DNA of 64,000 bases from Amphiscolops sp. MND2022 (taxonomy: Eukaryota), in NCBI GenBank assembly GCA_964187785.1, contig OZ076409.1, forward strand, positions 47,122,001-47,186,000, written 5' to 3'. A program made the position numbers and the translations under genes. A model generated the notes under the pieces. That model did no database searches. It had not been told where the DNA came from and saw only the letters and a list, made by a program, of their open reading frames with translations. Position 1 is the first letter of the stretch, and every line of letters starts with the position of its first letter. This document shows, piece by piece, positions 24,656 through 62,714 of the stretch.

Positions 24656-24752
24656 TCTGAAGATTAAAAAGATTGAAATGATTGAACAGCCAATCAGAAT
24701 GGAGGGAATTTTCCAATATTCTCCTTAATCCAAATTAAAGCTGAAATTCAAT

Positions 24753-30301: not shown

Positions 30302-30305
<4 letters not shown>

Positions 30306-30338
<33 letters not shown>
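30306..30338 (+). repeat. (AC)n microsatellite, ~16 units
   Basis: Seen directly; a shorter (AC)n-CATGT occurs at ~29173. Confidence 0.95.
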
Positions 30339-30341
<3 letters not shown>

Positions 30342-31311: not shown

Positions 31312-34300
31312 TCATTTTCTGGCATCGCTGACCTGCATATTCCTCACTTTGTCCTTGATATCTTGCCACTTTTGTGCATGAGGATACCTCTTCATTGCTT
31401 CCAAACAGACATCTTGACCGGGCAGACGCCCTTCCATCATTTCTTTTCGAAATTCCTTTCTCAACGCCTTTTCTTGATCTTTCGGCCATTGTCGTCTGGT
31501 GGCACCTTTTGGCCTTCCAGCAGTTGTTCTCTTCTTTTTCTTGGGCCTTCTTTGTTCGGGTTCTTCCTCAGAACCATGGGAAACTTCATCTGCTTGGAAT
31601 GAAGCGTCATCGTCTGACTTTTCTTCCTTGTCGTTGTCGTCGTCATCGTCATCGTCATCTTCATCAGACTCATCCTTCTTCCCTTTCTCTTTGGTTCGTT
31701 GTGATGTGCTGCGGCTTGAAGTCGCCTTCGAGGAACTCGGAAGATTTGAATCAGCAGGAGTTTCTACTTCTTCACCTACATCCTGGAAAGTTCAAAATTT
31801 GGGGAAATTATGACACGAAGACGTGATTTTGCTTTGCAGCTTTTCGAAGAGCAAACTTCTCAAACACCGTATGCTACTATTTCAACAAAGAACTCAAGAA
31901 ACTAAATTTCGACACTTGTTCAATTGGTAATCCAATTCGAAGAGAAATCAGTATTCTCAAACACCGGGCGTTGCTATTTCAACAACAAATTCAAGAAACT
32001 AAACTCCGACACTTTTTTAACTGTTAGTTCAATTCGAAGTGAAATCAGTATTCTCAAACACCGGGCGTTGCTAATTCAACAAAGAATTAAAAAAACTGAA
32101 CTCCGACACTTTTTTAATTGTTAATTCAATTCGAAGTTAAAAGTATTCTCAAACACCGGGCGTTGCTATTTCAACTGAAGCTTTTAAAATTATTGAAAAA
32201 AAATTAAAATTGGAATTCAAACTTATCAACCTATTCGCAATAGTGTTTGAAGTCAAATTAGTAGAAATTCTCACCGAATCGTCAAGATTCAAAGTCGGCT
32301 GGAGTGTGTCAAGGTTCTCTAGATAGGCGTCTTTGACCTTGCCTTTGTCCGCAATGTATAATAGTTTGGTCATTTTTGCCAGGTTTACAGCATCAGTGTG
32401 CTTCCTGTAGTACTTGTCGTGAACATTCAGGTCGTGTCCCAGGAAGTCGGCCACCCAAACTCTTTGGTTTTGTGGTAAATCCAAGAACTGGGCTGCAGTG
32501 GCAAGATACTTGCGGAGCTTTGTAGATCGGAACACTTTTTTGTCTTGCAGCTTAAACTCTTCAGCGTATTTCCTCAAAACATCGATGCTTCTGTAGAATT
32601 GTTCGCCTCCCTCTGTTTGGAAGAAGTAGTTGTCACTTTTCAGCTTATCGTCATTAATCATGATGTCTATCACTTCTAGTGTTTTAGGTGGAATCAAAAC
32701 GGGAACAAATTTTCCACCTTTCCCAGGCAGTCGCAGCAACGTGTAGTACTTTGCGAACATCATTTCAACTTCTGTGAGCTTAAAAAGTTCGTAATCCGTT
32801 GTTTGTGCCCTCTGTAAAGCCAGACTTCTTTGGAGAATCATGTCTTTTCGTGTTACACCCGAAACTTCGCGATCTCGCTTCTTATTAAAACTGACAAGAT
32901 CAGCAATCACGATTTGTTTCATTTCGGCGTAGTTGTGAGTCGTTTTGGCCAGCAAACCCGAAATTTTTGCCCCAATCTTTTCTCTGAAGCGCATCATATC
33001 CGAAGTTGGAATGACAAGGTGTGTCGACTCGTTCTGTTTCTTCAGCATCCTGTTAAAACAATCAAAACATACAAGGCCAATATGAAAAAAAAACTCATTT
33101 TGGAAATACGGAATTAAAGCTGAAAACATTGAAAAAAGGTTGATGCTATCCGGATATGCACCCACGTGGGATTGTCATATTTCACGACAGCTTCCCTCCT
33201 GCACTGTTGCCGCAATGGAAGACTCAACATTGTCAATTTGACGCTTAAGGGCGCGACATCCGCTCAGGCATAGTACCGAGAACGGAATTAAATGAAAGAT
33301 ACTACAAAAATTAAAAAGTTGTCAAACGACGTACATCTGCATTTTTCTGAAGTGCAAAATCATTTTTGTTTGTTTTTGTTGAATTTGAAAGTCAGTATGA
33401 GACGTTTTTCGTGGTGACATGAAGTGTTAAAAAATAAAAAACTAACTCATATTTTGCTGGTGCCGAAATTGCTGCCCACTCACTATCTAGAATTTTCAAG
33501 AACTCTCTTGCTGTTTCCGATATTGACTTCTTTTTCCACATCCAAGCCTGGTTGCGTAAGAACTGAGCAGCTGTTTTCAGAATTGATCCCATTTTAATCC
33601 TGTAGGACTTTTCGAATGTCATAACAGCTTCTTTCACTCTTGGCCACATTTCGGGATTAATGACTTCAATCAAGTATGAGCAATTGAGTTTGTGTACAAG
33701 CTTGGCCATTGTTCTCATTCTGTCGTTGATTTGAAGGTAACCCTCGTCAGCTTTTCTCTTATCGAAGTACCACTGGCCAAGGTATCGTATCAGAGGATCA
33801 CGCCTTGCAATATTCCCATATTCATCATGTCTCATTCGTGTGAAAACATATTGTTCAAATGGGGTGTCTTTGGTAGCTTTCACTTCGAGCATCAATGCAA
33901 ATGTAGCAGCCTTGATATTTTTTCCTGTATTGCTCAAAGCTATCTTTCCACTTGCTGGACAATCTGTTTTATGTCGATACATTGTTTTTTTCTGGAAGAA
34001 ACCGAGACAACTTGGACAAGGGGCAAAGTCATAAGCAGATGGATTTTCAGCTACAGTTGGATCCCTGGCAACAATCAATTTGCTCTCGAAGTTTTGGGTC
34101 TCGCTGCACTTCTTGAAAACAGCGATGTTGTATTTATAGAGACCTTCATAGACAATCAAGTGAGTGAGATTGTCCTTCTCTCTCCTCAGTTTTTTAAGTT
34201 CGGTCTCAGTTTGAACAGTTTCCCTGCCTTCTTCAAGATCCTCAATTTCCTTGTTAATCCTTTGAAGGTTTAAAACTCGGAGTTCTTTGCGATGAAATTT

Positions 34301-37300
34301 ATCCACATGACGTGTCAGTTTTTGCACCATAGTGGCATTTTCTGGTTCAGTGAAGGGACAGTAAGGACAACATTTTGTTTTTCTGTGTTTATTCAGGGCG
34401 ACTTGAATTTTGATCTTCCGAAGAAATTTAGCATTGAATTGGCATTGTCCTGTTTGTTGGACGTACTTCTCCATTACAAGTTCCATTTCCTGATCGTCCA
34501 TTTCTTGGGTATCCGTTGAAGTTGTAGCTGACTTGTAAGAACTTTCACTAATCTGACTGATACCTTCTGCATTCAAAACAACTTCTTTGGTTATTCCAAC
34601 CAGAGGACCGCATTTCTTCGTTTTTGATCTTGTTCGTTCCAATGGCTCATCTTCCGATGGGTATTCGCTGCTCACATCCTCATCGTCCGTGTCATCATCA
34701 CTTCCGGGAGTGAATCGATCGCTCGACGAGGTGGACGAATCTTTACTAGAATCTTCAGTTGTTCCACTGGAACATGGGGGCTGCGATTCTTCGTCGCTTG
34801 AGCATTGTTCGGAGACGGATTCTTCGCTTTCTTCAGCTTCCGGTTTCGGCTGTAGGTATTGACGGCCCTTGGCGAGCAGTTTTACAGCTCTGGTTGTTCC
34901 CTTCCTGGGTGTCAACTGCAAAACAACACACTAAGTTGAACATCACTATCAACCAATTGAAATGTTTTCGGTAAAACTTCAACAGAAAAACAGCAATTTT
35001 CATTAGCAAAACCTTAGAAACTCCGCCTTCAATTACTTTTCGCTTTATTCCAAAACATCTTTTTTCTACAATTGTTTTTTGACCAGTAGATGTCTCACGA
35101 AAGAAACCAAGGGGCTCCGGCATTCTGAATTTTGGAGAGCTAGGTCGAACATGCGACGTATGTTCGACCAAATGTGATGAACTTTTATGCGAGACGAAAA
35201 ACGACTACTGAAAAACTTTTGTGGTTTTTATCAAGGAAAGTGAACCAAAAGAAAACTAGGTTTACTTTGTGAGGTAGAGAAGTATCCGGAGTTGAAGAAC
35301 TTTCTTCCTTTTTCTGGTATTTGTTCGTCGTCAACCTTTGAACAGATTCCTCGATAGCTGAGTCTATGTTCTTCGGCTTCTTGGCTTGCGGCTGTTTCGT
35401 TGATGTCAGGGTCGGCTTTTTGACAGCCTTTTTTTTTATCTCCACTTGCTGTTGGTTGTTGAAGCGGTTCAGCTGGTCTTGATGCTCCGCAAATGGTTGA
35501 TGATCTCACTGGTCCACTTTTAGAAGACAACGCTGCGACGGACGGCTCATTCGCGTCAATGACAGATGCCAGTTCCGAAGCATGTTCATCAGCAACATCT
35601 GGCTTGGCTTCTCCACTTTTAGCTGGTGGTTTCGGATCAACTATCTCGCCGACAGCTGGCTTGGCTTCTCCACTTTTAGCTGCTCCTTTCTGAGCAAGTT
35701 TCTCTCCGACAACTGGCTTGGCTTCTCCAGTTTTAGCTGGTGGTTTCTGAGCAACTTTCTCTCCGGCAGCTGGCTTGTCTTCTCCAGGTTTGGCTGGTGG
35801 TTTCTGAGCAAGTTTCTCTCCGACAACTGGCTTGGCTTGTCCAGGTTTGGCTGGTGGTTCCGGAACAACTATCTTGCCGACAGCTGGCTTGGCTTCTCCA
35901 CTTTTAGCTGTTGGTTTCTGAGCAACTTTCTCTCCGACAGCTGGCTTGGCTTCTCCACTTTTAGCTGGTGGTTTCTGAGCAAGTTTCTCTCCGACAACTG
36001 GCTTGGCTTGTCCAGGTTTGGCTGGTGGTTCCGGAACAACTATCTCGCCGACAGCTGGCCTGGCTTCTCCACTTTTAGCAGGTGGTTTCTGAGCAACTTT
36101 CTCTCCGGCAGCTGGCTTGGCTTCTCCAGTTTTAGCTGGTAGTTTCGGAACAACTATCTCGCCGACAGCTGGCCTGGCTTCTCCACTTTTAGCTGGTGGT
36201 TTCTGAGCAAGTTTCTCTCCGACAGCTGGCTTGGTTCCTCCAGTTTTAGCAGGTGGTTTCTGAGCACCTTTCTCTCCGACAGCTGGCTTGGCTTCTCCAC
36301 TTTTAGCTTGAGGTTTTGAAGTAAGTTTCTCTACGGCAGCTGGCTTGGCTTCTCCAGGTTTAGCTGATGGTTCCGAAACAACTATCTCTCCGACAGCTGT
36401 TATGTCTTCTCCACTTTTAGCTGGTGGTTTTGAAGCAAGTTTCTCTCCGACAGCTGGCTTGGCTTCTCCACTTTTAGCAGGTGGTTTTGAAGTAAGTTTC
36501 TCTCCGGCAGCTGGCTTGGCTTCTCCACTTTTAGCTGATGGTTCCGAAACAACTATCTCTCCGACAGCTGTTATGTCTTCTCCACTTTTAGCTGGTGGTT
36601 TTGAAGCAAGTTTCTCTCCGACAGCTGGCTTGGCTTCTCCACTTTTAGCAGGTTGTTTTGAAGTAAGTTTCTCTCCGGCAGCTGGCTTGGCTTCTCCACT
36701 TTTAGCAGGTGGTTTTGAAGTAGGTTTCTCTCCGGCAGCTTGCTTGGCTTCTCCCCTTTTAGCTGGTGACTTCGGAGCAACTTTCTCTCCGGCAGCTTGC
36801 TTGGCTTCTCCACTTTTAGTTGGTGACTTAGGAGCAACTTTCTCTCCGACAGCTGGCTTGGCTTCTCCACTTTTAGTTGGTGACATAGGAGCAACTCTCT
36901 TTGCGACAGCTGGCTTGGCTTCTCCAAGTTTTTTTACGACAGCTGCCTCGGCTACTCCAAATGTAGTTGGTTGTTTTGAATCATCCTTTCCTGAGGCAGT
37001 TGCTCTGAGTGCCACCACGCATTTCGAGAAACCTTTTACTACACCGGCTGTCTGTTCCGACTTCTCATCTTCGGTTTTTGATTCGGAATCAATATTCTGT
37101 GTAATGTTGGCTTTCGATTCTGGTTTTGACGTTTCTATTTTCTGGACCTGGTGTTTTAAAACAACTCTACTTCTGGTCTTCGGCTTCTCTTCCTTTGTAA
37201 CAGCTGATTTGTTTGTAACGTAGAATTCTTTTGTAGAATTTGGGTTTTCCAAATTAACTGGTGTCTCACTTTCGGGAACCGCGGTGTTTTTTCGCCACTC

Positions 37301-40300
37301 GGCATTTGGGAAGCCATAATCATATCGCAGCTCTTCTCCTTAAACAAGGTTGCACGTGAATTTTTCAAATAAAACTCATTTCTTTATCTGCGAAGAAAAA
37401 CACTTGTGTTCCTTTTAAGCTTCCCCTTATTCCATTTTCTAAAACTAGATATCAATTTTCCTGTGCCCACGTAAATAGTTTCTTGCTACCCGCTGGTGAC
37501 AATATTATATTGTTGTTTTCTCCAGTTTCATTTTTTGGCGATTCGAAATCTATCAAAATTTTTCTTTCAAAATTGAAACTATGAAAATTTTCAAATCAGT
37601 CAAAAATATTTCTGAATTATATCAAAACTTATTCTATTTTTGGACAATGTAATTCGATTCATGTAAAACGGACTCAGTATGATGCTGTTTCTTACTAGCA
37701 GAAGTTCGGACTGGCAGTTAGTAAAATTTGTCGTCGTGTTTTTACAGTCACAAGGTCGTACTCGCACTTGGTAGGACATGACTGATTTTACAAGCACATG
37801 GTCGGACTTGCACTTGATTGATCATGATGTTCAAGCACCACGCGTTGCTACTGTTGTCGCTGTGACCCACCAATGTATATCTTGTAATTAAAAAAATGTC
37901 AATTTTTCGAAACCAATTTTTTGTTCAATCTAATGGCACTGGCATCCTCAGACTTGGGGGCAAATGGTTAACGAAACAATTTTCACGGATGTTTTTTCCA
38001 CAATGTGATGGTTGGAAAAAATGCTAACTTGATAAACTTTTTTTCGAAGTTACAATTGTTCTAATTTTGGAACTCTTGTTGCAGAAATTCCATTGAAACA
38101 TTTTCAGAGATACCAAAAGTTCTAAAACTTCCCTTGATGTTTCGTATTTCTGGCACTTTCTTAACTTATTTGTTGTTGAACTTTGTAATTTTAGGCAAAA
38201 GAGCTGCGGTATTTTGAAACGCGTTCGCACAAAGGTATATTTTTGGTAAAGTAATTGGTTGTTTTAACTTCAAAGGTTCTATCTTATGTTAGTGTTGTTA
38301 GTATTGTGGACAATCCCGCTATCGCGCGATTGTCGAGCTCATCTTTTGGGGACAGCTCGTTACAGTATATGCAAATAGATGGATATGATGGTCCAATGCC
38401 AATAACGACTGCGTTACACTATTTCAGTTTTTCTGCATTGCGCCAAAAATTTGAATTTAGCAAATATTTTCAATTGTTTGCTGGAGTCGACCGTCATTCC
38501 GCGGCAGCCCTTCGCGCCACTTCATGTCGGTTTTTGTCAAAACGGGCTGCTTGCCAAGTAATGTATTGTCTCTCCGCTTTGCTGCCTTGCTGCACATAAG
38601 TGCATACTAGGTGCATAAGAACATAGCTGATTACATTATCATAATTAGTTCATTGGTGTTTAGCACACAAACTCAATCACTTTGCTTTTTCCCTAATTCA
38701 ATTTTCAACCAATCAGAAGCGTTTAATAAACGTTTTTGGCGCAATGAAAAGCTTACTAAATTTCAACGTTTAGGGAAACGGCCAAAATTCTGGCGGTTAC
38801 CAGAAAAAGTCCATTTCGAGGGATTGTTTAAAAAGATTACGTACCAAATAACAAGAGCAAATAACAAAAACAAATTTAGTTTCAAATAACATTCAATTGA
38901 AAGTAATTTCTTATAAAATAAAAATCAAACTGAATACTTGGTTGAAAAATTGAACTCACGTAATTTTATCTGTAATTTTTAATACTTTTTTCAGTGAATC
39001 CTTTGAATTTTCTATAATGTTGAACACTAAAACTTTCTCGTGTTTTTATTTGCTCTAATGCTATTTGGGAATTCACCGTTTGAAAACAATTTTGCTCAAT
39101 GTCATGCAATTTAGAAATTATGGATAAGATTTGGGATTTATGCTAAGCCCCATCCTGGTTTAAAGACGTCACCTGGAATCGAGAAACTTGAACACCTCTC
39201 AAATAGGGAACTTGATTTGAGCCTATCAAATTATGTACTTACTTATCCCTGGAACTTTTGCCAAAAGTGATTGGAATATCAACGCCCTGTGTTAGTGAGT
39301 TATCCCAACTTAGATGATTATATACATTCCGTATAATGAAACAATCTGGAAAGCAGTGATGTCCATTTATAATAAAATAAATGATTTTTCATGTGCCAGT
39401 GGAAAGGACAGAAAAAACTTATACAGCTCGTGGACTCTATTCCAAGCAACGCTCGGTGTTCGTGAATTTTTTCACGACTTGGTCGAACATGAACACTACT
39501 TTTCACTATCGGGTTAAAATAGCAACGCCCGGTGCTTGAATTCTATAACGACTTAGTCGAACATAAACACTACTACTTTTTACTACCTGGTTAAAATAGC
39601 AACGCCCGGTGTTTGAATTCTATAACGACTTAGTCGAACATAAACACTACTACTTTTTACTACCTGGTTAAAATAGCAACGCCCGGTGTTTGAATTCTAT
39701 AACGACTTAGTCGAACATAAACACTACTACTTATCACTACCTGGTTAAAATAGCAACGCCCGGTGTTTGAATTTTATGGTGACTTGGTCGAACATAAACA
39801 CTACTAGTTTGTGTTTTAAAATAGCAACGCCCGGTGTTTGAGCTTCATTACCACTTGGTCGAACTTGAACATTATTTTTCATTCCCTGTACACGAAAGTT
39901 ATTTTTCAACGTTATATATGGCTCTTTGCTGCAAAACATCCGCTCTAATGCTCAATGTTGACCCATGATAATCCTATTTCCCAAAGAAAAAACCGAAAAA
40001 CGTTCAAAAGGGCCTAATGAGAAGTTAACTTGGGCTCCGCGACAGTACCAAAAACGAACAGAAAACGCGATTTTATATGCAAGAACAATATGTTTGAAAT
40101 ATAAATAGAACGTTTTTCAAATTGCACTTGGTGTGGCCTTACCCTGTACTTTACTAAGCATCGATGGGACTTTTTAACGCAGTCGTGTTTGTTTTCAATC
40201 ACCAAGTAATTTACTGATTGCTCTCTCCTAATTGCCAGCTTGTATGCAAAGCTCTCAACTTGGTTCATTCACCACCCAACACCCCATGGGGATGGCAGGG

Positions 40301-41400
40301 TTTATTGACGCTTCGCTTATTATTGTTTAAAAAATAAATAGGACGTTTTCGAAAATGCACTCGGTGGGACCTGAAACTAGTTTACTAAGCATTGATGGGA
40401 CTTTAACCGCAATCTTGTTTGTTCCTATTCGCCAAGTAAATAAGTGGTTGTCCCCTTCCTGATTAAACTCAAATCAACAGCTTGTATGGCAAGTTCTCAA
40501 CTTGGTTCATTCACCACCCAACACCTGACAGGCGGATAACTATACTCTATCTTAATTTTTAGCACTTTTTTCAATCGATAAACTATTCGGAATCAATTAG
40601 TGGGACATACTTTGTGGGAATTGAAAAATTACTAGAGCGTGGTCATGTGTCAAAAATATGGAAGTAAGGGACCATGTGTTCAATCCTCCTCAAGGGGCCG
40701 CTACTTGTCAGTTGAAAGTTATTCTTTTAAATTTTAAGGCGAAGAAAATTTGCGTTTGAAGAACATAGTTTGAACAAAATTTGTATTTGAATCTCAAACT
40801 GTCAAAATGAAATTAGTTTCCAATATGAACGTTTAAGGTGCTAAGTTTAAGTCTTTTACATTCGAACACTGTCACTGATTTCTCAAAACATTTCTGACTG
40901 TCATTTTGACTGTTTTTTGGTAGCAACTAAATCTGGGTTTCAATTACTTGAGAATTCTGGGAAACATTACAGAAGATTGTTCCACAATTTGAAAAATTAA
41001 ACTGACCTGGAAGAATAACACGAGTTGCCAGGAAGATGCAATGTGGTCTGCCGTCGTCGTCATGAACCTTTTTCATTCGACAGTTGGCGGCAACTGATTT
41101 GTCCTTGTCGTTGATAAACCTCGCCAAGCCAGAGTTCGTCTCATCGGAAGTGTCAATGAACACTGTGTCTTTTCCCTCCTGAACTTCCATCACGTAGTCA
41201 AAGTTGGCGACTTGAGTTGCTCTCCTCGGCCCCCAATAACTCAGGAGAAACTCTTGCGCTTCAAATTGCTTTTTCACGAAAAGCCCTCTTCCAGTCGTTC
41301 CATTGGCGAATTTGACGGTCTGGACAATGAAACCCTCCGGATCAGAATAGAGGAAGTCTTTCCACGATTCAGTTTTTCGCGCAGCACTACGAGTAGACAT
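31312..41400 (-). CDS. SET-domain / tyrosine recombinase fusion protein, ~1726 aa, 5 exons (one +1 homopolymer frameshift at ~35430)
   Basis: Exons 41400-41007, 37338-35266, 34915-33447, 33049-32275, 31782-31312, all GT-AG and phase-compatible. The splice rebuilds SET motif ILPG|EELRYDYG. YR motifs: FNKKR, PGKGGK, STKLRK, FLGH, HDKYY. C-terminal W..W..VRN Myb/SANT-like region. Confidence 0.85.
31855..32175 (-). repeat. ~96-bp tandem repeat with the AGCAACGCCCGGTG core in reverse orientation, in the last YR intron
   Basis: CACCGGGCGTTGCT at 31962, 32059 and 32154. Confidence 0.85.
35600..36950 (-). repeat. 57-bp coding minisatellite (19-aa PAKSGEAKPAVGEKLASKP), about 23-24 copies, in exon 2
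   Basis: Visible in the DNA and in ORF 35231..37252. Confidence 0.95.
39445..39870 (+). repeat. 77-bp tandem repeat with the AGCAACGCCCGGTG core and a GACTT(A/G)GTCGAAC motif
   Basis: Core at 39521, 39598, 39675, 39752 and 39823. Confidence 0.9.
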
Positions 41401-41840
41401 GGTTTTCTGAAGAGCAAGAAAGGTAGGGTTTTGTCACACAGAGCAGTTCAACCAAAAATTAACATCAATAAAGCCAATGAAATATGAACTCTACATTATA
41501 ATAAATAAGTAAACCTTTTAGTGTTCAACTGAAACCGTTCGATTATGTTTTAGAATTTAGGAAGAATGAAAAAATGTGCTCAATGACAGTGTTGCTACTA
41601 GGAGAAAATTCAATCGAGAAAATCTAATACTTTGCGGATTTATGGTGTCTACTTTTGATCCGGAAAAAACATTAGTGAGTCAAAATACTGTGATTCATTG
41701 TTTTAGCGAGAAAAAAAGAACAAAATTTTGAACCAATGTTGTCAGTTTTGAAAGCAAAGAGTTCTCAAGAAATCAATGTCAGCTTCGAATTGAAGAAAAG
41801 CCAAAGTTTTCATTGGTCTGGTCACGCTCCCATTTTCTGT

Positions 41841-43938
41841 TCAATTTTGTTGGTCCCAAGATTCTATTTCGTCCCAGTGGAAGTCCCAAGTGGATTCGCA
41901 GTACATGTAGAGGAAAACCTCCCAGGGGCTCTCGAAGGGCTCTTTTCCTTTGGGGTGTCTACGTTGGTCAGCCTTGATGATAGCCAGCATCTTCCTCAGC
42001 TCAACTTTACTGACAGTGCTCTCTGAACGATGACGATATGACCACTCTCTGTAGAGGAATATGACAACCAAGGCTTCAAAGTGAGGAAATGCAAAGGAGG
42101 GTTGGAAACCTTGTTCGAGTTCCTTCTCGAAGGCCAGGGCGCTCCGATACATGTGCTTCTCCATAATGAAGATACAGCCAAACGCCACGCTCTCTTCCGG
42201 GGTGAACACAAAATGAATCCATTGACTGGGTAAGAACAGACAATCGCCTTTTTCTAGCACTATCTGATGCGTTGTCACGTCCCGGTGAAAGCCGAAGAAG
42301 AATGAACTGAAACAGAGAGCATGTTGAAGAAGCAACTATTAACCCATGAATTGGTCATAGGGATCTAAAATTCACTACCGTTCGTTCATCGCGCACATAG
42401 TTGTCATATATAAAAATCGGTGGTAGATTAATACCATCGATCAATAGCAACGCTCGGTGCTGGAAAAAAGTAACAATTGTTGCGACCTAAATTTGAGATA
42501 AAAAAGGAACGCCCGGTGCTGGAAAAAAATTAATTATTGCGGCTTCATATTTAAGATGAAGAAGCAACGCCGTGATGGAAAACGAGAGTGTTTTTAGGAT
42601 TCGAACGAAAAAGCAATCGATCATTGATGCTTCTCCAACGTTCTAAAAATTGAAGAAAAAACCTAAAAAATACTTTTGAATTTGTACCTATTTTTCAGAA
42701 CATTTATGACGCAAGCAAAGCTCCTGATCATGTGCCTTGAATAAAGTCTCACTTACTTTCTGTTACCGCTCGCAAGCCATTCCTCAAAAAGCTTTTGATT
42801 TTCCTCGGTTGGCTCCACAACAAAGAAGTGTTTCTGGCCCTTTGCCAAAATGTAGAAAATGGATGTGCCCGTGAAGTCCTGATGCCAGTTAGTTTGCGCT
42901 CCAGCTTCTGACATCAGCAGGTAGTCACTAATTCCTGATGTGAAATCAAATGCCAACTGGTTTTTGGGGCTCATAGAATTCTTCGTGCAATGGCCAAAGG
43001 AAATGTCCGTCACTATATTGGGCAAACAAAACCGGTGAACCATCCCGCTCTTTGAATCCGCGTTGAAGTCAATCACATTCATCGGATGATATTCATGCTC
43101 AAGGCTGCGGTCTTCATTGTGCTCAAGAAACTCCTCCAGAGTGAATTCATCTTCATTTTCTTGAATCGGAGAGAAACAGACATTAATTTTGACCTCCCCT
43201 GGAATTCCCTCTGTTACACAACGAAAAGACGTCAAGCTTTCAGCAGGAGGAGTTGCGATACCAGGAAGTTTGTTGGTACACTGGCGTATAACAACAGGTT
43301 TTGAAGGGCTCCCGTTGCAAAACTTGGATCTAATATCGTCCACATTCAGCACATCAAAATCATTTGTGGCAGGCGGTGCTTTTGCAAACACATGCTGCTG
43401 GAATTCCACAGAACCAACTTTGACTCCAATTGGGGGAAGCGAACTGAAGTTTGTTGAGTAAGAAGCGACGCCCTCCACGGCAGTCTCCAGCTGTTCCTCG
43501 ACCGCGACTTCGGTTGTCCTCGGAGGTGTTTTTTTTGAATCTTCAGCTCTCTCTTGAACGTCAACCGCTTCAGCACCCGTAAGAGTTTCTTCGGATGAGA
43601 CTTCACTTCTCTCTCCAAGAGAAGCAAGGGTTTCCAGTTTAAATTGAAGCGACTCGTCACTTGAGAAAGGAGGGCTCTCATCCGCGAGAGATCGTCGTTC
43701 TGGGGTCTCTGGAACAAACGGTTCCAAAACTGCGCTTTGGTCGACAAGATTTGCACTTTCCTCAACTGCACCAGAGGATGTAGTGGGCTTTTGTTCCAAA
43801 AACGTGAAAGTTGTCGCCGTTTGGGAAGTACTGGTTGTGGCTGGAGCAAGATGGTACTTTTTTTGTGCCGCGTTAGATCAAAACTTCGAGTCGTTGTCGT
43901 GCCACAAAATTCACACTCGAAGATACCTTTTTGGCGTT
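41841..43938 (-). CDS. C2H2 zinc finger plus JmjC 2-oxoglutarate/Fe(II) oxygenase, KDM2/KDM7(PHF8)-like histone demethylase; 5' end incomplete; one homopolymer frameshift at ~43860
   Basis: Exons 43938-42757 and 42306-41841 join in phase 2. YLLMS..TNWHQDFTGTSIFY..GQK..PT and LFLPSQWIHFVFTPEESVAFG give an intact HxD..H triad. CEFC..LTRHKK(K)YH finger. Confidence 0.85.
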
Positions 43939-44329
43939 CTGAAACATAAGACTCGTTATGCGAAGGAATCAAACGGAAGCCAAAAAGAATGCTACAATAT
44001 TCGACTTGGTGCCAGTAAAAAAGTTGGTTATAATCGAAGTTTATCGATCAATCTTAGATGTAATCTAGTCACTGTTCATGCGGTGCAACACCCGGTGCTG
44101 GAGAATGAGACTGTTCCTTAAAACTCGAAGAAAAAGCAACGCCCAGTGCTACAAAAATGAGGTTAAAACAAGCGCGACACAATTCAACTAGCCACTGTCA
44201 TGAATACTATATTGGTATTTATTTATATATTATTCAGGACAGGGCTTGTCAAACTATGCCAGAGACAGGTTATTCTAACATATCTCCCTGAATTTCGTTT
44301 TTTGTATTCAATTAAAAAAGAAGTATCGA

Positions 44330-50250: not shown

Positions 50251-50327
50251 AATACCTGAGCCTAGTAAAACAAGATTAAAATAAAAAATATTTAACAAAA
50301 TAAAAATTGAAAAAGCAAACAACTTAC

Positions 50328-50517
50328 TTGGAGGTGGTGAAGGAAACTCACTGGGTTCCACAGCTTCTTTTTGTCGCTTCTGACAAGTCTTTTTAGCAAC
50401 ATGCTGCTGCAATTTGGTCGTGCTTGCGCAAATTAACCCACATAGTTGGCAAGTGCAGCGGAAAATGCTTTGAGCTTTTCGTGTTCTTTGGCCTTAAAAA
50501 CAGAATCGTGTGAAAAC
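50328..50517 (-). CDS. Probable upstream zinc-finger exon of the JmjC gene (6.4-kb intron); 5' part out of frame
   Basis: Encodes CQLCGLICASTTKLQQHVAKKTC. The phase-1 GTAAGT donor at 50327 fits the acceptor at 43939, giving PPP-K-RQKGIFEC. Confidence 0.5.
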
Positions 50518-53500
50518 CTGAGAACTGATTTGGAAAACACAATCTCATGAGTTTATCAATAAATTGATGATTGATTTTTACGATCGATAAATTTTGATTG
50601 ATTTTTTATCGAAAAATTGATGATTGATGAAATAATTTTTGGACAGCCCTGCAAATGAATGATCAAGCAAATGAAATGAATTTTCAACAGAGGCTTGGAC
50701 GCAAACCAAGAACCTTCAATTTTATTTAAATCCAGGTACAATTTTTTTTCACAAGCTGTTTTTGACTGTTTTTGGTGGTGGCGGTGAGGGGGATGGTTTG
50801 TTCAATAATTTTTGTTCACGGTGAATTCCCAGATAACACAAGAGCAAATAACATAAAAATTGAATTAGTTTCAAATAACATGAAAATAAAATTGTTTACG
50901 AGAAAGTTTGGATCTTTTGTTAATCCCCCCTACCGTTTTAATTCCCCCCAGTTTTTATTACTCTATATTACTCTACCTTTTTTTAACTCTAACAGCAACT
51001 GAAACTCATCTCTGTTACGAGGGGGGGTGGTGTTTCATAATTTTCTCTGTGGGGGAATTAACAGCAAAGATCCGAAAGTTTTAGTGTTCGAAGCATTCAC
51101 AATGCAAAAGACATTCACTGAAAAAGTATGAGAATTACAGATAAAATTTAGTGAGTTCGATTGTTTAACCGGGTATTTGGATTTTTTTTTGAAACTAATT
51201 TCATTTTTACGTTTAATGGAAAGAAATTCGCTTTTATGTTATTTGCTCTTATGTTATTTGGTACAAAATCTTTGTTTACTAACCCAGGCATCTTGATTGA
51301 TGGCGACTGAACAACCACTTCTGATTGGCTTGGAATTCCTTCGCGCAGTGAGTGCAGTGTAAAGGCATATCTTGTTCCAAGAATGATTGATTATCATTTT
51401 TTTAGTTTTCAATTTTGAATTTGAAAAAGTTTTAAATACAATGTTGTACGTCCTTGAGTGCAACCATTATATCGTCGAAAAGAAAATTCAAAACTTTACT
51501 TCACTTTTCGAAACAAATGAGAAAACTGAAACATAGAAACCAAAAGAAAAATGATCATCACTGATATCGGTGGAAATATTGTGATTTGAATAGGCGAGTA
51601 GACGATAGGTATTCAAATTTTGATTGAGAGAGCGAACGCAACTGAATGATAAAGAGAGTGGATATTGAATGGCGACTGCGCTGGAAGAAGCGATGAGTCA
51701 CATGAGTCACCGCTTTGAACTCCGCAGCTCGCTTTGTTAGAATCATAAACAAACATTGCTTGCACGACGCTGCATCGTTCAACTAGTGGAATTTCCACCG
51801 CACTCCTTTTTTCGTCGACAAAACCAAGAAAGTTGACTCCCAATAAAAGAGCGGCAGCTCGGAATACAAACTCAGCCTCCTTTCATTTCAAACAAAACTT
51901 GGTTTCAAAACCCGAACATCGAGTTGAATAAAGAATGTAAACAGAAAGTAGTTACCGAACTGCGCTGCTCGTGATTTTTTTCTTTTCTTTCGATTATATC
52001 AAAGGAACAGAGATCAAACAGCTTTAGTGTTTTTTTTTGGGGGGGGGAGGGAGAATTTCCCAACAAGGTGTACCTTGGAAATAGATGACATGGTCCGATT
52101 TAAGAAATAACTGGTTGGATTTTATGCCTTTTGGTTTCTATAAGAACAGTTTTCAAAAAGTAAACTGAATAAATGAATCCTAAATTAAATTTTATGAATA
52201 ATGTAAATCAAAGATATTTTTATTGAGGGGGTGGGGGGCGGTGGTTTGTTTGGTACATGTATTTAAAAAAATCAATTTGATCAATAGTTCATTTTCCTTT
52301 TACTTGTTCAAAACAATTTTCTTTTCATTTAAAATATTCTCCAGAACTGCAATCCTTTTCAATACAAAAACAAGATATAGAGACCGAATTCTATATTCTT
52401 CTCACGTATACCGAACAATAATTTGATATTAACTGTACTTCAAAAAAACGAACTGAATTAACTAATAAAGTTCAACGTTCGGTAAAATCGAGGTTTTGAA
52501 TTTTCATTGTTGTTCCAGTTGGGGGGGGTTTGATTATAATTATTAAATAATTAATAAATTTGTGAATGTGCATGATTTTCCAAATGCGCATAACGTTTTG
52601 GTTTTTGAAAGTTAAGTCCGACTTACAGTATTCCAAGCAATAAACTAATTTGATGAATTTAATTCAAAGGAACTAGTTGATTGTTTCAAACGTTGTTCCA
52701 GTTGGGGAGTATTTGATTAAACCAATTGATTTTTTTCCATTATATAATTCCCAACCACCTTATAATTCTGAACCACCGAGCGTTGCTATTTTAAGCCGAG
52801 TCAAACAACCAAAATGAAAACATTGGTGAATTTCCAAATAACATTGGGAATAAGAATGCCGAAAACATTATCTGTAAGGATTTTGTCGGGGCTATAAAAA
52901 ACCGAATTAGATAGTGTCAAGCATCGTACAACACGCAAATGCAATTACCGGTTCACCTTCAGACACATATAATTGCGTATACTGTAACGAGCTGCCGCTA
53001 ACAAATGATGAGCTTGACAGCGTGATTAACCACTACACTAACTCGGTTGAAAGAGCAGCAATTTTAAGTTAATCAAATAACGCCAAACTCACGTAGCGAA
53101 TACTATATAAGAGCAAATTACAAAAACGGAATTAGTTCCATTCAACATAGCGAAATTATTTTCATATATTACGAAAAGCCGAATACCCGGTTAAACAATT
53201 AAACTCACGTTTTTGTCAGTAATTTTAACACATTTTCAGTTAGTCTTTTAGATTTTGAATGCTTTTGACAACTTTCCCAAACAATTTTAATTTCATGTTT
53301 GGTGAAGCTCTTTTCATTTTTATTTTTTTAAAACTAATTTGGTTTTTCATTTGCCATTTTGTTAGTTCGACCTTGTGCTAGTAAAAACAGGTCTCATGTC
53401 CTACCAAGTGCGGGTCCGACCTTGTGCGAGTAAAATTACAACCGCATGTATTAAGTGCAAGTCTTGTGCTATTGAAAAACGGCCTCATGTCCTACCAAGT

Positions 53501-53983
53501 GCGGATTCACGAAAACTGAGTTTACATTTCGCTCGATCAACTGACTTGCTTTGTGATTTTCAAAATCGTTGTAGATAACTAGAAATGACAGATGCTATAT
53601 AGCAAACGAAAATTCCTGAAAATTCAGGTGGTCAAGATAATTATGAGAATAAATTTCGTTATATAACTGAGAATTCTAGTTTATTACTGCCAGTCAATTT
53701 CTATGTTTGTAGCTACAAACAGCAGTAGTTGACTGGTTGATAACTTGCTTGAGTTATCTCGGTTCCCGAATTTCAAAGCTCTTCGAGACAAAATAACGTG
53801 TTTTTGTTACGGTTCTAGTAACCTATTCACAATAACCCTTGTAGCCTATATTAACACTCAACTTATCTCGTGCCAAAACCAAGTATGTGTTCTATAAATT
53901 CAATTCAACCAACAGAGAAAAACAAATAGTTGAAGCGAGAAAACAAATTCAGAAATAAGACTGTTTTTGAAAATTGAAAGTTT

Positions 53984-54316
53984 TTAAGCTGCTCTTGATA
54001 GTGGGTAAATCAGCTGCATGTAGGTCACGGCGTCTTCCAGCGCAGGGTCAGTGTTTTCCAAGGCATGGTAGCAAAGAACTTCATAGAGTCTTATAAAACT
54101 GTGTGACTCTGGATCAATTCGCACTTTGCATTTTCGGGATTTTGGCTGGGAGGGTGACACTAGACCCGAGTACTTGGAACGGTAACAAATTTTCACCGAT
54201 TGGTCTGCGTAGGTCCAACGGAGTCTTGTAATGATTACGTCAACTAATCCGTTGATCTGCATCTCTTTGGGCAGAGTCCATTCGAGGTGTAAATACACTT
54301 TTTGGTACCAAAACAT
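53984..54316 (-). CDS. Hypothetical 110-aa protein, paralog of 58296-58676
   Basis: From ATG 54316 (MFWYQKVYLHLEW..); aligns end to end with the 58296 ORF. Confidence 0.7.
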   Translation of the reverse strand: MFWYQKVYLHLEWTLPKEMQINGLVDVIITRLRWTYADQSVKICYRSKYSGLVSPSQPKSRKCKVRIDPESHSFIRLYEVLCYHALENTDPALEDAVTYMQLIYPLSRAA

Positions 54317-55399
54317 TTGGATGGAAAGAGTGAATACTTGACAGAGAAAAAGAGCGTGGTTGAGATAGGCACACACACACAGGGAGAAAGAGAGAGAGAG
54401 TCGAAAACGAAACTGAACTGACTGATTTGAAACAGCTCTGAACGAAAGAATGAGCCAGTGGAGAAACCAATTACGAGATATATAAGTGAAAAGAGAAAAT
54501 GTACCGAAAAACAAAAGCCTGATGAAGGATGTATTATTCGATAGGAAACCCTGGCAAATAACAAATAATTGCGTTTTCCTCCCTTCGAGAATGAAAGACA
54601 TAAATAACAGCTTTGTTCAATAGTAGAGTATTATCAATTAGCGAATTAAGTTGCTTCATGTTAATCGAATGTAGTCGATGAAAGCACAACACCGCGTTAC
54701 TAAATGATACATAAGGCTAGTCTGTTCAATTGTTCAGCCTGAATCATTTGGTAATTAGGTAAACGGTAGTTGAATTTGTTGCTGGTTGGGCGACTAAAGA
54801 AAAGCATCAAACTGAATTGATGTGATAGTGCCGATACCTCTGCACTCTTGTGACGGTTTGAGGTTGAATTGGTTATTTAAATTTTTTGAGGTGGTCTAAA
54901 ATCACGGATGGTGTACGAGTCTTTGTATTACAAGTCTGATCCTCATACACTAGTAACGAAAGGAATATATTTCCGGTAAAACTGTCTCAGTATTTTGTGA
55001 CCGTTTATGCCAAAAGAAACTTTTAATTTTAATTAGATGGACATTAAAGTTTGTAGATGTTTCGGATCTTGTAGGCTGGGGAAGGGGTGGCATTAGCAAG
55101 CAAGATATGATTTTTTGTCTTTTTTTAGTCATGTAAACTGTAAACAATGTGTATCGGGGGAAAACGACATGATTCGGAATTTTACAAGCATTCGATAGAT
55201 TACATGTCTAAGTTTCACGCATCCAATTTGAAAAAAAAAAGCAATGCAACGCCCGGTGTTAAGTAGATTCGAACCGACATTCTACAGCAGTAAAGTATTC
55301 TATTTTACCTCTCGGCCATAGCGCCTTGATATTGGACGGTTCTATTTTAGTCTTATTCCTATTTGCTCTGTTTAAAGCACTGGTGTTAAACGAAAGACG

Positions 55400-55640
55400 T
55401 AAAAAACCAACGCCTGATGTTTGATCGCACAGCCTATCCAGAACAAAGTGAAAAAGCAACGCCTGGTTTTTGATCGCACAGCTTATCCAGAACAAAGTGA
55501 AAAAGCAACGCCTGGTGTTTGATCGCACAGCTTATTCAGAACGAAGCAAATTAGCAACGCCTGGTTTTAATCGCACAGCTTGTTCAAAAGGAAGTAAAAT
55601 AGCAACGCCAGGTGTTAATCGCACAACTTGTTAAAAAATG
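55400..55640 (+). repeat. 49-bp tandem repeat with the AGCAACGCCTGGT core
   Basis: Core at 55455, 55504, 55553 and 55601. Confidence 0.85.
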
Positions 55641-55644
55641 AACG

Positions 55645-56099
55645 GGACCATGTCATCTATCCCCCCCAGGTACACCTTGTTAGGAATCCCCCCAGCACGA
55701 AAGCACATTTTGTTCTTGAATAAAAATATTTCACTACTTAGAGAATATTATACGAATGTAAATACTTAGCGGATTGTCTCTACAACTGTTGGACACTTCA
55801 GGTAAAAAAACCCTAATTTTTTGATATCATTGTCCAAAATGGCAAAAATTCACGCTTGGAACAAGATGAATTAGTATAAAAAGGCCCCTATTTCAACGCA
55901 AATTTTCTCCGTGATGATATCTAATGAGCAACTTTTAACTGACAGTCAATGTAATGGATAGGATTATGTCGACATCAATTGTTTTATTGGATTAATATTC
56001 TAACGCAAACGATGTCGACATAATGGTATTTGAACCTTGTGACTTATTCCCCCCCCCCCCCGCCGCAGTTGGGGGGGGGGGAAACAGATGACATGGTCC
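55645..56099. mobile_element. 455-bp MITE with GGACCATGTCATCT TIRs and 8-bp TSD (Merlin- or hAT-like)
   Basis: TIRs at 55645 and ending at 56099; AATGAACG at 55637-55644 and 56100-56107. A lone matching end lies at ~52060-52096. Confidence 0.85.
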
Positions 56100-56494
56100 A
56101 ATGAACGATACGAACAAAAATTGCAATTAAATCCTTCAAGAAAATACTAGGGGTTTATAATGTTCTTAACGTCATCAATATTCCAGAAAGAATGGTTCAC
56201 TTTCGAAAAAGTCGCTTTTCAAGGTTATTGGGCGACAAGTTTTTTATTTTATACCTAAATACTTGAAATTTGTCAGTTTCTCACATTTGATTTTGCTTTA
56301 AAAATAGTTGCAATTAATTGCAGCTAAATGCATTCAAATCAATAAACTTTTTAATTGCCTGAATTCAAACAATTAAAACTTAAACCACTTTGATTGCAAC
56401 GCCCAGTGCAATCAGCGTTGTGCAATAAATAATTTATTTGAAAATAATTCAAAGAAATAAAAATACCAATCTTTATTCTAGTTTCGTCTTCTAG

Positions 56495-56825
56495 TTTTAG
56501 AATGAACGTATTAAAATAGCAACGCCTGGTGCATCGCTCAGAGTTTGATTTAGAATGAACGAATTGGAATGAACGAATAAAACTAGCAACGCCCGGTGCT
56601 CGCGCAGTGTATAATTTAGAATGAACGATTAAAAATAGCAACGCCCGGTGCTCGCGCAGTGTATAATTTAGAATGAACGATTAAAAATAGCAACGCCCGG
56701 TGCTCACGCAGTGTATAATTTAGAATGAACGATTAAAAATAGCAACGCCCGGTGCTCACGCAGTGTATAATTTAGAATGAACGGATAAAAATAGCAACGC
56801 CCGTTGACTCGCGCAGTGTTTGATT
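56495..56825 (+). repeat. 52-bp tandem repeat with the AGCAACGCCCGGTG core
   Basis: Core at 56585, 56637, 56689, 56741 and 56793, plus 56518. Confidence 0.9.
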
Positions 56826-57203
56826 TACAGTAGTTGACTTAGACGTCAATCAAAACTAATATAATGATAATCCTCAATGTATTTTTGTGAAATACTCTAC
56901 AGTAGTGATAATCAGGAAGAATAAATTCGGGCACTCATTTTCTCAAAACGGCGGGACTTCCTTATGCGAATTCGGTACTCCTATTTCCTAAATCGACACT
57001 CGAAAATAAACGAAGAAGCAATGAAATTTTTCATTGATATTTAACGAAAACAAAAGGTATTGAAAGTGATCACAAATGTTTCAACACATATTCCAGAAAT
57101 ACGCGTTCGAGTTCGGGTTCTTGGTTGTTTTACAGATAAATTCAACCAGCGGCATCGTCGGCAATCGTCTTGGTTTTGAGACTATTTGTTTCTCAGCATC
57201 ATC

Positions 57204-58295: not shown

Positions 58296-58676
58296 ATGCC
58301 TTGCCACAAACTTTATTTGAACTTACTGTGGGTAGTTCCACAAGAGCTTGAAAACCTCGATATTGAGGTAGTTACCATCACAAAAATATATTGGACCTTC
58401 AGAGAAAGTGTCATCAGAGTTTGTTTCTATGGAATCCAATTTAACCGCTCTCATCCGCTACCCGTGAAAAAGACCCCAACGAAATTCAACATACACCTTC
58501 ACCCACAGTCACAAAGTTTCAAGGACTTGAACGAAGTGCTGGGCTACCATGCTCTGGACAACAAGGATCCACTACTGGAAGAACTGCTGAGCTTTATGTC
58601 CAGCATCAAGAAGATTTCTTTGGAAAAACTCTTTGACTCGTCTTCGGACGAATCATTCTTTGGCATGGAATTCTAA
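58296..58676 (+). CDS. Hypothetical 126-aa protein, paralog of 53984-54316
   Basis: Intact ORF sharing K.YL.L.W..P.E, IT...WT....V and P.S.SF..L.EVL.YHAL.N.DP.LE. Confidence 0.7.
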   Translation: MPCHKLYLNLLWVVPQELENLDIEVVTITKIYWTFRESVIRVCFYGIQFNRSHPLPVKKTPTKFNIHLHPQSQSFKDLNEVLGYHALDNKDPLLEELLSFMSSIKKISLEKLFDSSSDESFFGMEF

Positions 58677-60951
58677 TTGCACGCACACATTGTATTTTTT
58701 CAATTCAAGTCGTTTCATTTATATTTTATTTTCATTTATAAAAAATATTTTATTACTGTAACAGCGATAAGTTTCAGTTGCAGTTAGAGTTATAACATAA
58801 GTAGAGTAATATCGAGTAATAAAAACGGGGGAATTAAATGGGGGGATCAACAAAAGATCCAAACTTTCTCGTTGTGTGTGTATGTCCTACCAATGCTCGT
58901 ATCTAACTGGTATCCTTGTATACAAACTGTCCAAGTATTAATTGTTCAAAACAAGGATGACTTTTAAAAAAGTTTTGAAACATGGATATTAGAAACATTG
59001 TAATTAGTGATTTGAATATTTAGATTTTCAACATTTTAAAAAACGTCTTAATTAACACTTGAATGAATAAAAATACTTATTTTTGAGATAACTAAAACTA
59101 AGAGCGTTTAATTCAACGAATCGTCAGCCAAATAAATTCGAAAAACAAACAAAATTGAGCTAATTTCTCAAAATACCTTTGTCAAGAACCTTAAGCTACT
59201 GAGTCAAAAGGTCTAAGAGTCCATTAAAAAAGCCCTGTCGCCGCGTTTTGGCCTGATTATGGATGGCTACTTTAAATTTTTGTTGATATCCGTTTTTCGT
59301 TGAGAATAAAAATAATAATTATAAAGCAATAGTAATATTCGGATAAAATATTGAACACCCCTGATTGTATGTATTTGGCTAAAACTGTAGCGCAGTATAC
59401 GAACAAATACTCTCAAAAAAGCCTGGTTGGAGTAATCATACTGCGCGAGGAAGTGGAGAAGGGCATTGCTCTCAACACTACTGCATTATTTCCACCGTGG
59501 ATGCGATTGAAACATCAACAATCACAGTAAAATCTATTCCATGAACCATGAAGGTGGCTCCTACCGTGATTCGAACCACAATTTAACTATGCAGCTAGTG
59601 TGAGATCAATCTTTCGCGCAACCGACTACTCCAACAAGAGCTTGAAGCATTCAGTAGTGTTGCAGTTCATATACCATATTTACTGCGAACCAACGAATAT
59701 ATGACAACGCGGGAGCCAACAGCATTTTGAAATAATTCTTGGTACGCCAGCTCCACGTACCTGCTCGTTGTCAGGTTTGACAAGAGCTTAAAATTGTTTG
59801 AAGTGCAGTCGAATTTCACTTTCATATTCAATACCCTCATTGAGAGGTAAAACTCATTATCGTTGGTCATTTTGAATCTCCGTCCTCCCAAGTTATGAAA
59901 ATAACCATCCTCCTATTGAAATGCAATTTTCGATGAGGTCTCTTCCCGTTAAATGTTAAAAGTCGGGTGTTAAGTGTTAAGTTAAAATGGAGCAAAACCG
60001 GTCTGAGCCAATCAAATTTCAGAAAAATGGATGGACCGGAACGAAGTCCTCACGCAAAATTGAGTTGTGAATTAAAAAGTTCATTTTTCTCTGAAGTTTC
60101 CCGTGCTTTCGTTCCGGTCCGCATGCTTTCAGCCAATCAGATTGCAGAGAAATCGCAGTACGCTCTTTTTGAAGAGGATAAACAAAAAGATGAACAAGTA
60201 AGGCAGCATAAGGACGGAAAGATGCAAAAGGCTCAAAACAGATCGGTACCACCTAGGTTGTAAAATATTGTATTTCAATACATTTTGCATGAAATTAAAC
60301 TATTTATATTTATTTTTCAAGAAAATAAATGATTTAAACTATTGTCGCTTTATTGTGCTGGAGTGCTTGAGAAAACGAATTCAGTTTCACAAAACTTCAT
60401 TCACTGTATTTACTTACATCCCGGATGCTCGAATTTTTGTTCAAAGTCACATAGATAGTCATTATGGAAGTATCTCGCAGTACTGAAAATTCGTTCAGCT
60501 GAGTTTGACGTGTTTGATGTAAAATTTGAAACAATAAATTATTGTAATTGGAAAGGCCGAAAAATAAATTATTTGAATATATTTATTGCAATTATTTTCA
60601 ATTATTTACTTGACACTCTTGGGTACCACTACATACCTACAATTTTTCAAGCAGTCGTGTAAACCACTGCACCAACAGAACATTCATTTGATTTTAAAGT
60701 TTGCTCTTTATTGCCTGAAGTTTTATGCTTTTTAATAAGAGCAAATTAAGAGCAAATAACATAAAAACAAAATTATTCCCATTTAACATAAAAATGAAAT
60801 TAGTTTCATATAACATAAAAAATAAATCCAAATACCCGGGTAAACAATCGAATTCACGAAAATTTATCTGTAATGCTCATACTTCTTTCAGTGAATCTCT
60901 TTTGCATTGTGATTGCTTTAGAACACTAAAACTTTCGGATCTTTTCTGTTA

Positions 60952-61512
60952 AATGCTAATAAATGAACTAAATGAAATAGCAATGCCCGGTGCTTAGAAC
61001 ACTGCTATTAAATAAACTAAATGAAATAGCAATGCCCGGTGCTTAGAACACTGCTTTTAAATAAACTAAATGAAATAGCAACGCCTGGTGCTTAGAACAC
61101 TGCTTTTAAATGAACTAAATGAAATAGCAACGCCCGGTGCTTAGAACACTGCTATTAAATAATCTAAATGAAATAGCAACGCCCGGTGCTTAGAACACTG
61201 CTATTAAATAAACTAAATGAAATAGCAACGCCCGGTGCTTAGAACACTGCTATCGAATAAACTAAATGAAATAGCAACGCCCGGTGCTTAGAACACTGCT
61301 ATTAAATAATCTAAATGAAATAGCAACGCCCGGTGCTTAGAACACTGCTATCGAATAAACTAAATGAAATAGCAACGCCCGGTGCTGAGAACACTGCTGT
61401 TAAATAATCTAAATGAAATAGCAACGCCCGGTGCTTAGAACACTGCTATCGAATAAACTAAATGAAATAGCAACGCCCGGTGCTGAGAACACTACTATTA
61501 AATAAACTAAAT
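60952..61512 (+). repeat. 49-bp tandem repeat, 11 copies, AGCAACGCCCGGTG core
   Basis: Core at 60979 and every 49 bp to 61469. Confidence 0.95.
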
Positions 61513-62714
61513 AAAAAAATGTCGGGCTAAAGTGAAAGTTGTGATAAAAAATCACAACCTTGAAACACTGACACCCATTATCATGTATTTTTAGAGAGGC
61601 TCTCAGTTAGGGGATCACATAGTGTCGCCCATAACAAGACCCACGCCGGGAACGTGGCCTCTGGAGGGTCTCAAAATCTAATTTACAAAGTCTACTACGA
61701 AAATATGCTAACTACCAGAGCTTCCGGAATTTTATTTGGGATCAAACATTTCAATTAATTTAAACCAAAATCAATTAATGGACAAATGGAAACTTGCAAT
61801 ATAACTATCAATTATCTCGCAATTGTTGAAGCAATAATTTCGGTATTAAGGCTTTCATCCCAAGATAGTCTATTCATCTTCAAAGATTTCGAGTTTCATT
61901 GGAAATAAACTTATCTAAAACCGTCCATCTAAAGAACTTTTCCATTTAATTAGAGGTCAGAATCATTTTTTCCGTTTTTTCATCAAATTTTCAGTCAATA
62001 AACTACCTTTTGACCTCCCTAAAATCAATTAATTGCACCCTAATAATTGCAAATAAATAGTTGCCAGTTAATAAAACGATGAGATAATCAAAGAAGAATT
62101 GAAATGTTTTATGATGAAGGAAATTATATTCTTGAAAAGTTGATTCTGCTGTACAGTGTATTGGCGATCGAATGAATTAGATGTACGATGAGAGAAATGA
62201 AATGCTAATTATGAAGGAAATGATGCTGCTGAAAAGATGATTCTGCTGTACAGTGCATTGGCGATCGAATGAATTAGAATGTAAGAATGAAGTACATATA
62301 AGAATGTGATTAGAATTTCGTAATTCTGTTTGCGAACCATGCCGGGACTGAACGAAATTTTGTGACGTCATCGTTAAAACGGTTAATTCTTTTTCGATTC
62401 AAAATGGTGATAAATGCAAGAAACTTTGCTAAAGCTATATAATAGAGTGTGTGCATGCATAAATCTATTGGAAGATCAATAAATTATTGCAAAAAATAAT
62501 TCCATAGAAAGCTTTTGACTTTGAATATTTTATTGGCAGAAAGCAATAAAATAATTTATCATACCATGTAAATACTTTCTCCATTTTGAGACGTTCTGTT
62601 TACTGCTATTAAATAAACTGAAGGAAAGAGCAACGACCGGTGCTGAGAACACTGCTAATAAACAGCGTCCGGTTGATATATATGATGCAAAACTCAAAAA
62701 TTATATTCATATTA

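Follow-up and report, generated by a model that had tools for sequence, protein, structure and literature searches.

What keeps one short DNA motif intact in six tandem arrays whose repeat units otherwise have little in common? The question is raised by a stretch of 64,000 nucleotides from Amphiscolops sp. MND2022 (assembly GCA_964187785.1, contig OZ076409.1, positions 47,122,001 to 47,186,000), hereafter the window. Its right part is occupied by a large DNA element, E2, that encodes a tyrosine recombinase (YR) joined to a SET domain, together with a JmjC gene. A 14-bp core recurs throughout this element. The cores are confined to E2 and lie in non-coding DNA, they share a prevailing orientation, and they are conserved as two blocks; E2 itself carries intact chromatin-enzyme genes and belongs to a multi-copy family. 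We tentatively read the cores as docking sites for the element's own chromatin enzymes, and we weigh that reading against several others.

Distribution and anatomy of the core

Matches to the 14-mer with at most one mismatch number 46 in the window and zero in each of 100 dinucleotide shuffles. Allowing three mismatches yields 61 matches, 60 of them to the right of the N gap. This confirms the first-pass annotation, which had described the same core in six arrays and in scattered copies. Its statement that no core lies left of the gap holds at up to two mismatches, where we found no copies in those 28.5 kb or in the small neighboring element E1, but at three mismatches there is one match, at position 16083. 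All 60 cores on the right lie inside E2 and none in E1. No core falls within the exons of E2, which account for 7.8 of its 33.7 kb. As had been noted, most copies face one way (54 plus, 6 minus), and the 97-bp array in the last intron of the SET-YR gene is reversed; intronic cores occupy both strands of the SET-YR transcript.

The single copies listed earlier are present, although four of them had been placed 1-3 bases away from their correct positions (42505, 44084, 44135 and 45981). Most of those at 42-47 kb are not independent, because they match the 58-bp array at 68-85% by BLAST; we treat them as decayed units of that family, two of which (42446 and 42505) sit in the JmjC intron. When these are grouped, about 12 independent contexts remain, where a context, or lineage, is a category of our own definition. 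Over these contexts the consensus is bipartite, AAAWAGCAACGC-nnn-GTGYT. Core positions 3-8 and 12-14 are identical in 12 of 12 contexts. Of the 12 lineage-level mismatches, positions 9-11 hold 9 (p 5e-4 for any 3-nt window). The 14 bp are not the whole of the shared site: the six arrays, when compared, have an invariant AAA preceding the core and an invariant T two bases past it, so that about 20 bp, with a tolerant center, are common to them. Judged from sequence, two fixed blocks flanking a tolerant center have the look of a site read by a protein.

The spacers tell a different story from the core. With the core flanks trimmed, none of 20 between-array spacer pairs was alike by local alignment. 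Global alignment found 2 of 20 alike, the 97-bp array with the second 49-bp array (p 0.003) and the first 49-bp array with the second (p 0.018), so the earlier description of the spacers as unrelated is mostly, but not entirely, right. The proposal that selection maintains a protein-binding site that was amplified several times and is tied to the YR element thus stands in so far as the conservation is binding-like, the spacers differ, and 60 of 60 cores are in E2. The emphasis placed on two CpGs in the core finds little support: the first is near-invariant, the second lies within the tolerant center, and the ratio of observed to expected CpG is 0.95 for E2 overall and 1.02 for its right part (0.76 in the YR coding region).

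The 5' block TAGCAAC may resemble an RFX half-site. We set aside a resemblance to CTCF sites; against the CTCF consensus, the invariant bases of the core differ at CTCF's GGC, and the fixed GTTG of the core departs from it. Searches for the tandem-core pattern gave no match in viral contigs and a single match in metagenomes, in a roughly 37-base CRISPR repeat of bacterial origin that contains the same 14-mer (L001, 1327-1591) and that we take to be a chance occurrence. By reading of the frames alone, that repeat sits downstream of cas1/cas2-like reading frames. Core-derived peptides were not found in 190 JmjC and ORF B relatives, as expected with non-coding sites. The Rfam models of structured RNA families gave no match at the gathering score over 28766-64000.

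Possible docking sites and competing readings

The reading we favor, with a confidence that falls somewhat short of even, is that the cores are docking sites under selection, through which the chromatin enzymes encoded by the element are loaded along E2. A large tyrosine-recombinase transposon would keep its introns and the DNA between its genes densely stocked with such sites. The fixed blocks AGCAACGC and GTG would be read by a sequence-specific protein that the element most likely encodes itself; the candidate reader is the SET-YR protein's helical C-terminal domain. The reader would bring the SET and JmjC enzymes to the element's own copies, and the 34-kb unit might in this way stay open in the face of host silencing. 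Any 50-100-bp stretch holding a site would be prone to duplication by slippage or unequal exchange, and duplications that raise site density would be retained, with the result that unrelated spacers end up in arrays.

A number of observations weigh against this reading. Among the element's proteins none shows a clear domain that could recognize some 16 bp: the C-terminal domain of SET-YR has no meaningful Pfam match, and the zinc fingers, which the first-pass annotation had suggested as binders, are all single and isolated, which makes them poor candidates. Silencing by DNA methylation is not evident, because CpG is not depleted in E2. In each of the six arrays the cores are less different from one another than the spacers (core/spacer values 0/0.11, 0.03/0.12, 0.12/0.19, 0.12/0.18, 0/0.04 and 0.04/0.07), a contrast biased in favor of low core values in that the units were chosen by their cores. 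Certain single cores with two mismatches may be chance matches. The control DNA is small, consisting of the 28.5 kb left of the gap, of which 16 kb is one Gypsy element. Finally, in run X1, which contains a related copy of E2, the bin 31634-32300 has a depth of 813 compared with 1-3 in most bins; this bin covers the 97-bp array as well as a trinucleotide run, in which the listed loose ends fall, and either could be the source of the depth.

The element need not supply the reader. A host transcription factor could bind the core, with the arrays acting as enhancers for expression in germline or stem cells. The conservation of the core fits this equally well, and the want of a convincing element-encoded reader speaks for it. 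Even so we consider it unlikely: an RFX half-site, the T of which is A in two arrays, leaves the fixed GTG block unexplained, as a host factor leaves the intact SET and JmjC cargo, though the host-factor and docking readings could both hold at once. Helitrons with tandem heat-shock elements are a precedent for the host-factor view (PMC6927752). The arrays could also be a neutral by-product, if cores scattered by an old duplication act as sites of microhomology or breakage and whatever lies between two of them is duplicated. Minisatellite cores offer a parallel for such core-seeded duplication. The array edges agree in part, as the 97-bp array begins 8 bp ahead of its first core and ends near the degenerate fourth, and the 77-bp array begins exactly at a core. 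In its favor, too, some arrays share sequence beyond the core, as in the two spacer pairs mentioned above. However, three arrays run 18-36 bp past their outer cores, and the account explains neither the tolerant center nor why cores remain intact among unrelated sequences and where they stand alone; we give it a small chance.

Little chance, in our estimate, attaches to the arrays being replication origins or enhancers of an excised circular form, in the manner of baculovirus homologous regions (hrs) or plasmid iterons, a comparison drawn in the first-pass annotation. Like the hrs, which form several repeat clusters along a mobile genome and have an imperfect palindrome (PMC4535591), the clusters are spread along E2 and the 16-mer is an imperfect palindrome (12 of 16), and circles have been proposed for Cryptons (PMC3212892). 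But hr units are alike over their whole length and have 24-bp palindromes (PMC4535591), compared with the roughly 20 bp shared here, where 18 of 20 spacer pairs are unrelated by global alignment; the array periods have no common helical phase (4.6-9.2 turns); and none of the 11 E2 open reading frames (ORFs) scanned matches a polymerase, helicase or capsid protein. The comparison with hrs and iterons thus has little support, with units not alike over their whole length and no replication gene found. We regard it as very improbable that the core is a host repeat found across the genome and dense here by chance. The deep X1 bin with the 97-bp array would suit such a repeat, but the core is absent at up to two mismatches from the left 28.5 kb and from E1, and arrays lie within E2's own introns. 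Only 0.03 of the aligned X1 sequence continued into unlike sequence, a figure blind to any 14-bp core set in a new spacer, which would escape alignment. We find it hardly credible that the core serves the recombinase as its site of recombination or binding, with the arrays a record of repeated site-specific events. The core is bipartite, with short inverted arms and an asymmetric center, and it lies inside a YR element; its arms, however, are 4 bp, compared with 11-13 bp in YR sites (PMC3212892), and it is found neither at the two termini nor in E1, which has ends in common with E2. The termini carry a different motif, TTGGT[ACG]G[AG]AC, in an imperfect inverted subterminal arrangement. This motif occurs 11 times in E1, 13 times in E2 and nowhere left of the gap, and marks the ends of both elements, the 67-bp array of E1 and some internal modules. 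Because E1 shares these ends without having the core, the recombinase is more likely to act at the terminal motif, provided that E1 moves by means of a related enzyme, and the core is probably not a recombination site.

Genes, relatives and ends of E2

The features are collected in Table 1. The SET-YR gene encodes 1,645 amino acids in five exons, with four GT-AG introns and no internal stop, and its SET domain has a Pfam match. The YR domain was found by fold rather than by sequence: a sequence search of its alignment against PDB found no recombinase, and a fold search with the predicted model (pLDDT 84) matched XerH (probability 1.00, TM 0.55, E 3e-3), the top ten rows being XerH or XerA. Residues R46, K98, R167, H193 and Y202 are kept in 28-30 of 30 aligned sequences. 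At E ≤0.001 the YR has 2,151 representative relatives. Among 26 long ones picked from the best 150, 13 carry SET and one matches Pfam Phage_integrase; the named relatives are three fish proteins of 30-36% identity, and no relative was confirmed in viral contigs. For the helical C-terminal domain, all leads are weak and Myb-like and score under 0.9, as does Myb_Rap1 at 0.76. The gene also contains a 57-bp coding repeat (35595-36926), with 23 copies of a 19-residue unit.

A C2H2 finger at 43860-43920 (minus strand) lies directly upstream of JmjC and in a different frame in the E2 copy; in the relatives P0288, P0328 and P0331, finger and JmjC are in a single frame. ORF B has no match in Atlas and no viral fold at E ≤0.001, and its best fold match is PH-like (Z 5.5, rmsd 4.2, 86 residues aligned); on this evidence we do not count it among the candidate binders of the core. 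No reverse transcriptase was found in the 11 E2 ORFs scanned, that function being confined to the Gypsy element left of the gap.

Table 1. Coordinates, strands and attributes of features in the window.
Feature	Position	Strand	Remarks
97-bp array	31857-32175	-	3 cores and a degenerate fourth; last SET-YR intron
77-bp array	39445-39871	+	6 cores; SET-YR intron 1; units also contain a variant of the terminal motif
58/116-bp array	49585-50249	+	11 cores
First 49-bp array	55399-55629	+	5 cores; center mostly CTG
67/52-bp array	56500-56827	+	6 cores; first unit 67 bp, 52 bp from 56567
Second 49-bp array	60954-61516	+	11 cores; further unit at 62602-62662
Decayed units of 58-bp family	42446-47489	+	42446, 42505, 44084, 44135, 45797, 45863, 45981, 46041, 47414, 47476
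Lone cores	37836-56408	mixed	37836 (-), 39278, 45437, 48496 (-), 52774 (-), 55245, 56395
SET-YR gene	31312-41400	-	exons 41400-41007, 37338-35510, 34915-33447, 33049-32275, 31782-31312
JmjC gene	41841-43920	-	exons about 43799-42757 and 42306-41841; HxD...H triad present
Short ORF or exon	50330-50493	-	one C2H2-like finger; weak (Pfam E 0.08)
Small ORF A	53987-54304	-	paralogue of ORF B (35% identity over 86 amino acids, E 4e-17)
Small ORF B	58296-58676	+	126 amino acids; multi-copy
N gap	28566-28765		
E1, small related element	29183-30306	.	1.1 kb; CA runs on both sides; no long ORF; no core
(AC)16 microsatellite	30306-30338	.	between E1 and E2; likely target site
E2, large SET-YR DNA element	30338-64000	-	about 33.7 kb
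E2 right subterminal region	63730-64000	.	copies of TTGGT[ACG]G[AG]AC
Segment absent from X1 copy	47735-49174	.	1,440 bp; largely duplicated at 52250-53450; one reversed core; terminal-type motifs

The E2 family is multi-copy and CryptonV-like. In contigs from ENA, JmjC has 157 members in 38 clusters and ORF B has 88 members in 28 clusters. With equal contig size as a proxy for the same contig, and with the listed members being part of each cluster, 23 of 64 listed ORF B contigs equal in size one of 99 listed JmjC contigs; for the YR, which was sampled as representatives only, 1 of 11 contigs matches an ORF B contig in size and 1 a JmjC contig. Run X1 contains a colinear copy over about 32.6-47.7 kb, and 73 of the 117 X1 records aligned to E2 are 90-95% alike. 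One X1 contig spans a SET exon, JmjC and the core sites at 45-46 kb. The copy skips 47735-49174 and 1,005 bp of the SET-YR coding repeat, and X1 does not cover 30300-30966 or 35636-36302; we did not take the depth of X1 contigs as copy number. P0001, a YR copy at 95%, retains the peptide obtained by translating across the first intronic core. Because of the co-occurrence of JmjC and ORF B and the copies in X1 and P0001, we regard E2 as a multi-copy family in which the arrays lie between genes that travel together. Second, diverged subfamilies also exist, for JmjC at 45-56% (P0249-P0257) and for the YR at 60-65% (P0005-P0012).

The left end of E2 follows the (AC)n run and resembles the left end of E1. 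Because the last 270 bases of the window resemble the right subterminal region of E1 (63796-63888 against 30057-30152, 76% over 97 bp, E 6e-10), we tentatively place the right end of E2 about 60-70 bp past the window, which gives the length listed in Table 1. CA runs touch the left end of E2 and both ends of E1, at a single locus, with the right junction of E2 outside the window.

Other repeats lie within E2. A diverged duplicate (77%) links 47770-49114 and 52250-53450, each with terminal-type motifs and one reversed core, and could be a small derivative that lies nested within E2. A match to the left subterminal sequence at 30518-30586 is present at 49113-49176. An AT-rich module of about 200 bp occurs in six copies of 72-86% identity (38832-39041, 48750-48955, 50829-50897, 51074-51273, 53108-53268 and 60747-60936), two of them directly upstream of an array. 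There is an internal duplication of 72% identity (44470-45242 and 46528-47316) and, close to the right end, a 192-bp array with G runs and no core (62742-63254). Left of the gap, 11762-27820 is a Gypsy-type long terminal repeat (LTR) retrotransposon whose 2.37-kb LTRs (11762-14133 and 25449-27820) are 98% identical; its gag-pol frames are interrupted, and it has additional minus-strand ORFs. A PLAC8-family ORF at 10422-11087 (minus strand) is probably a host gene.

Known systems and the meaning of the arrays

E2 resembles CryptonV elements, YR DNA transposons that target microsatellites, in having a YR without reverse transcriptase, an animal host, a left end at a CA run and a small related derivative alongside (PMC8869645, PMC5753468). 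It differs in its length of about 34 kb with cargo, its imperfect subterminal inverted motifs and its internal arrays, and the likeness is drawn from descriptions of the group. Cryptons are described in PMC3212892 as having short terminal direct repeats of 4-6 bp and no terminal inverted repeats, unlike the imperfect inverted subterminal motifs of E2 and E1. The Starships of fungi are also large YR-mobilized elements with cargo and a recombinase gene at one end (PMC13465315); E2 differs in its animal host, its chromatin-enzyme cargo and the lack of a DUF3435 match. The macrosatellites DXZ4 and ICCE likewise keep a short binding motif as spacers diverge (PMC6125249), but they belong to the host and are built of large units with CTCF sites.

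The target arrays of VANC are a closer analogue than hrs or iterons; the first-pass annotation had mentioned neither this analogue nor the bounds of the element and its terminal motif. The VANC protein of Arabidopsis removes silencing and binds a short motif of its own VANDAL family; copies of the motif are dense in introns and between genes, point the same way and have multiplied in tandem (PMC5735166). E2 has this layout too, with a short, dense motif that mostly faces one way, forms tandem repeats and is concentrated in the non-coding DNA, intronic and intergenic, of a single large family of DNA transposons. The VANC protein contains tandem peptide repeats (PMC5735166), as does SET-YR with its 57-bp coding repeat. 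The differences are the animal host, a YR rather than MuDR, a longer, bipartite motif, the SET and JmjC cargo, which belongs to enzyme classes that write and erase histone methylation, and CpG that is not depleted. Because no MuDR transposase and no VANC-type domain (DUF1985, DUF287) was matched by Pfam in the E2 ORFs scanned, E2 is not a member of VANC/VANDAL, and the relation is one of analogy.

Our literature search, which left most subscription papers and Repbase reports outside its reach, found no description of a SET/JmjC element of this kind or of its internal arrays. PMC5735166 raises the question of whether sequence-specific anti-silencing occurs in other kingdoms. It is possible, though on balance doubtful, that E2 represents an animal counterpart of VANC: a widespread and little-described family of giant SET-YR elements in which an element protein would read a private, arrayed motif and direct the histone methyltransferase and demethylase that the element itself encodes to its copies, thereby defeating host silencing. 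With the same DNA layout, SET and JmjC genes, a defined motif of fixed and mutable positions and a few candidate binders, this VANC-like reading is one that can be tested directly in an animal.

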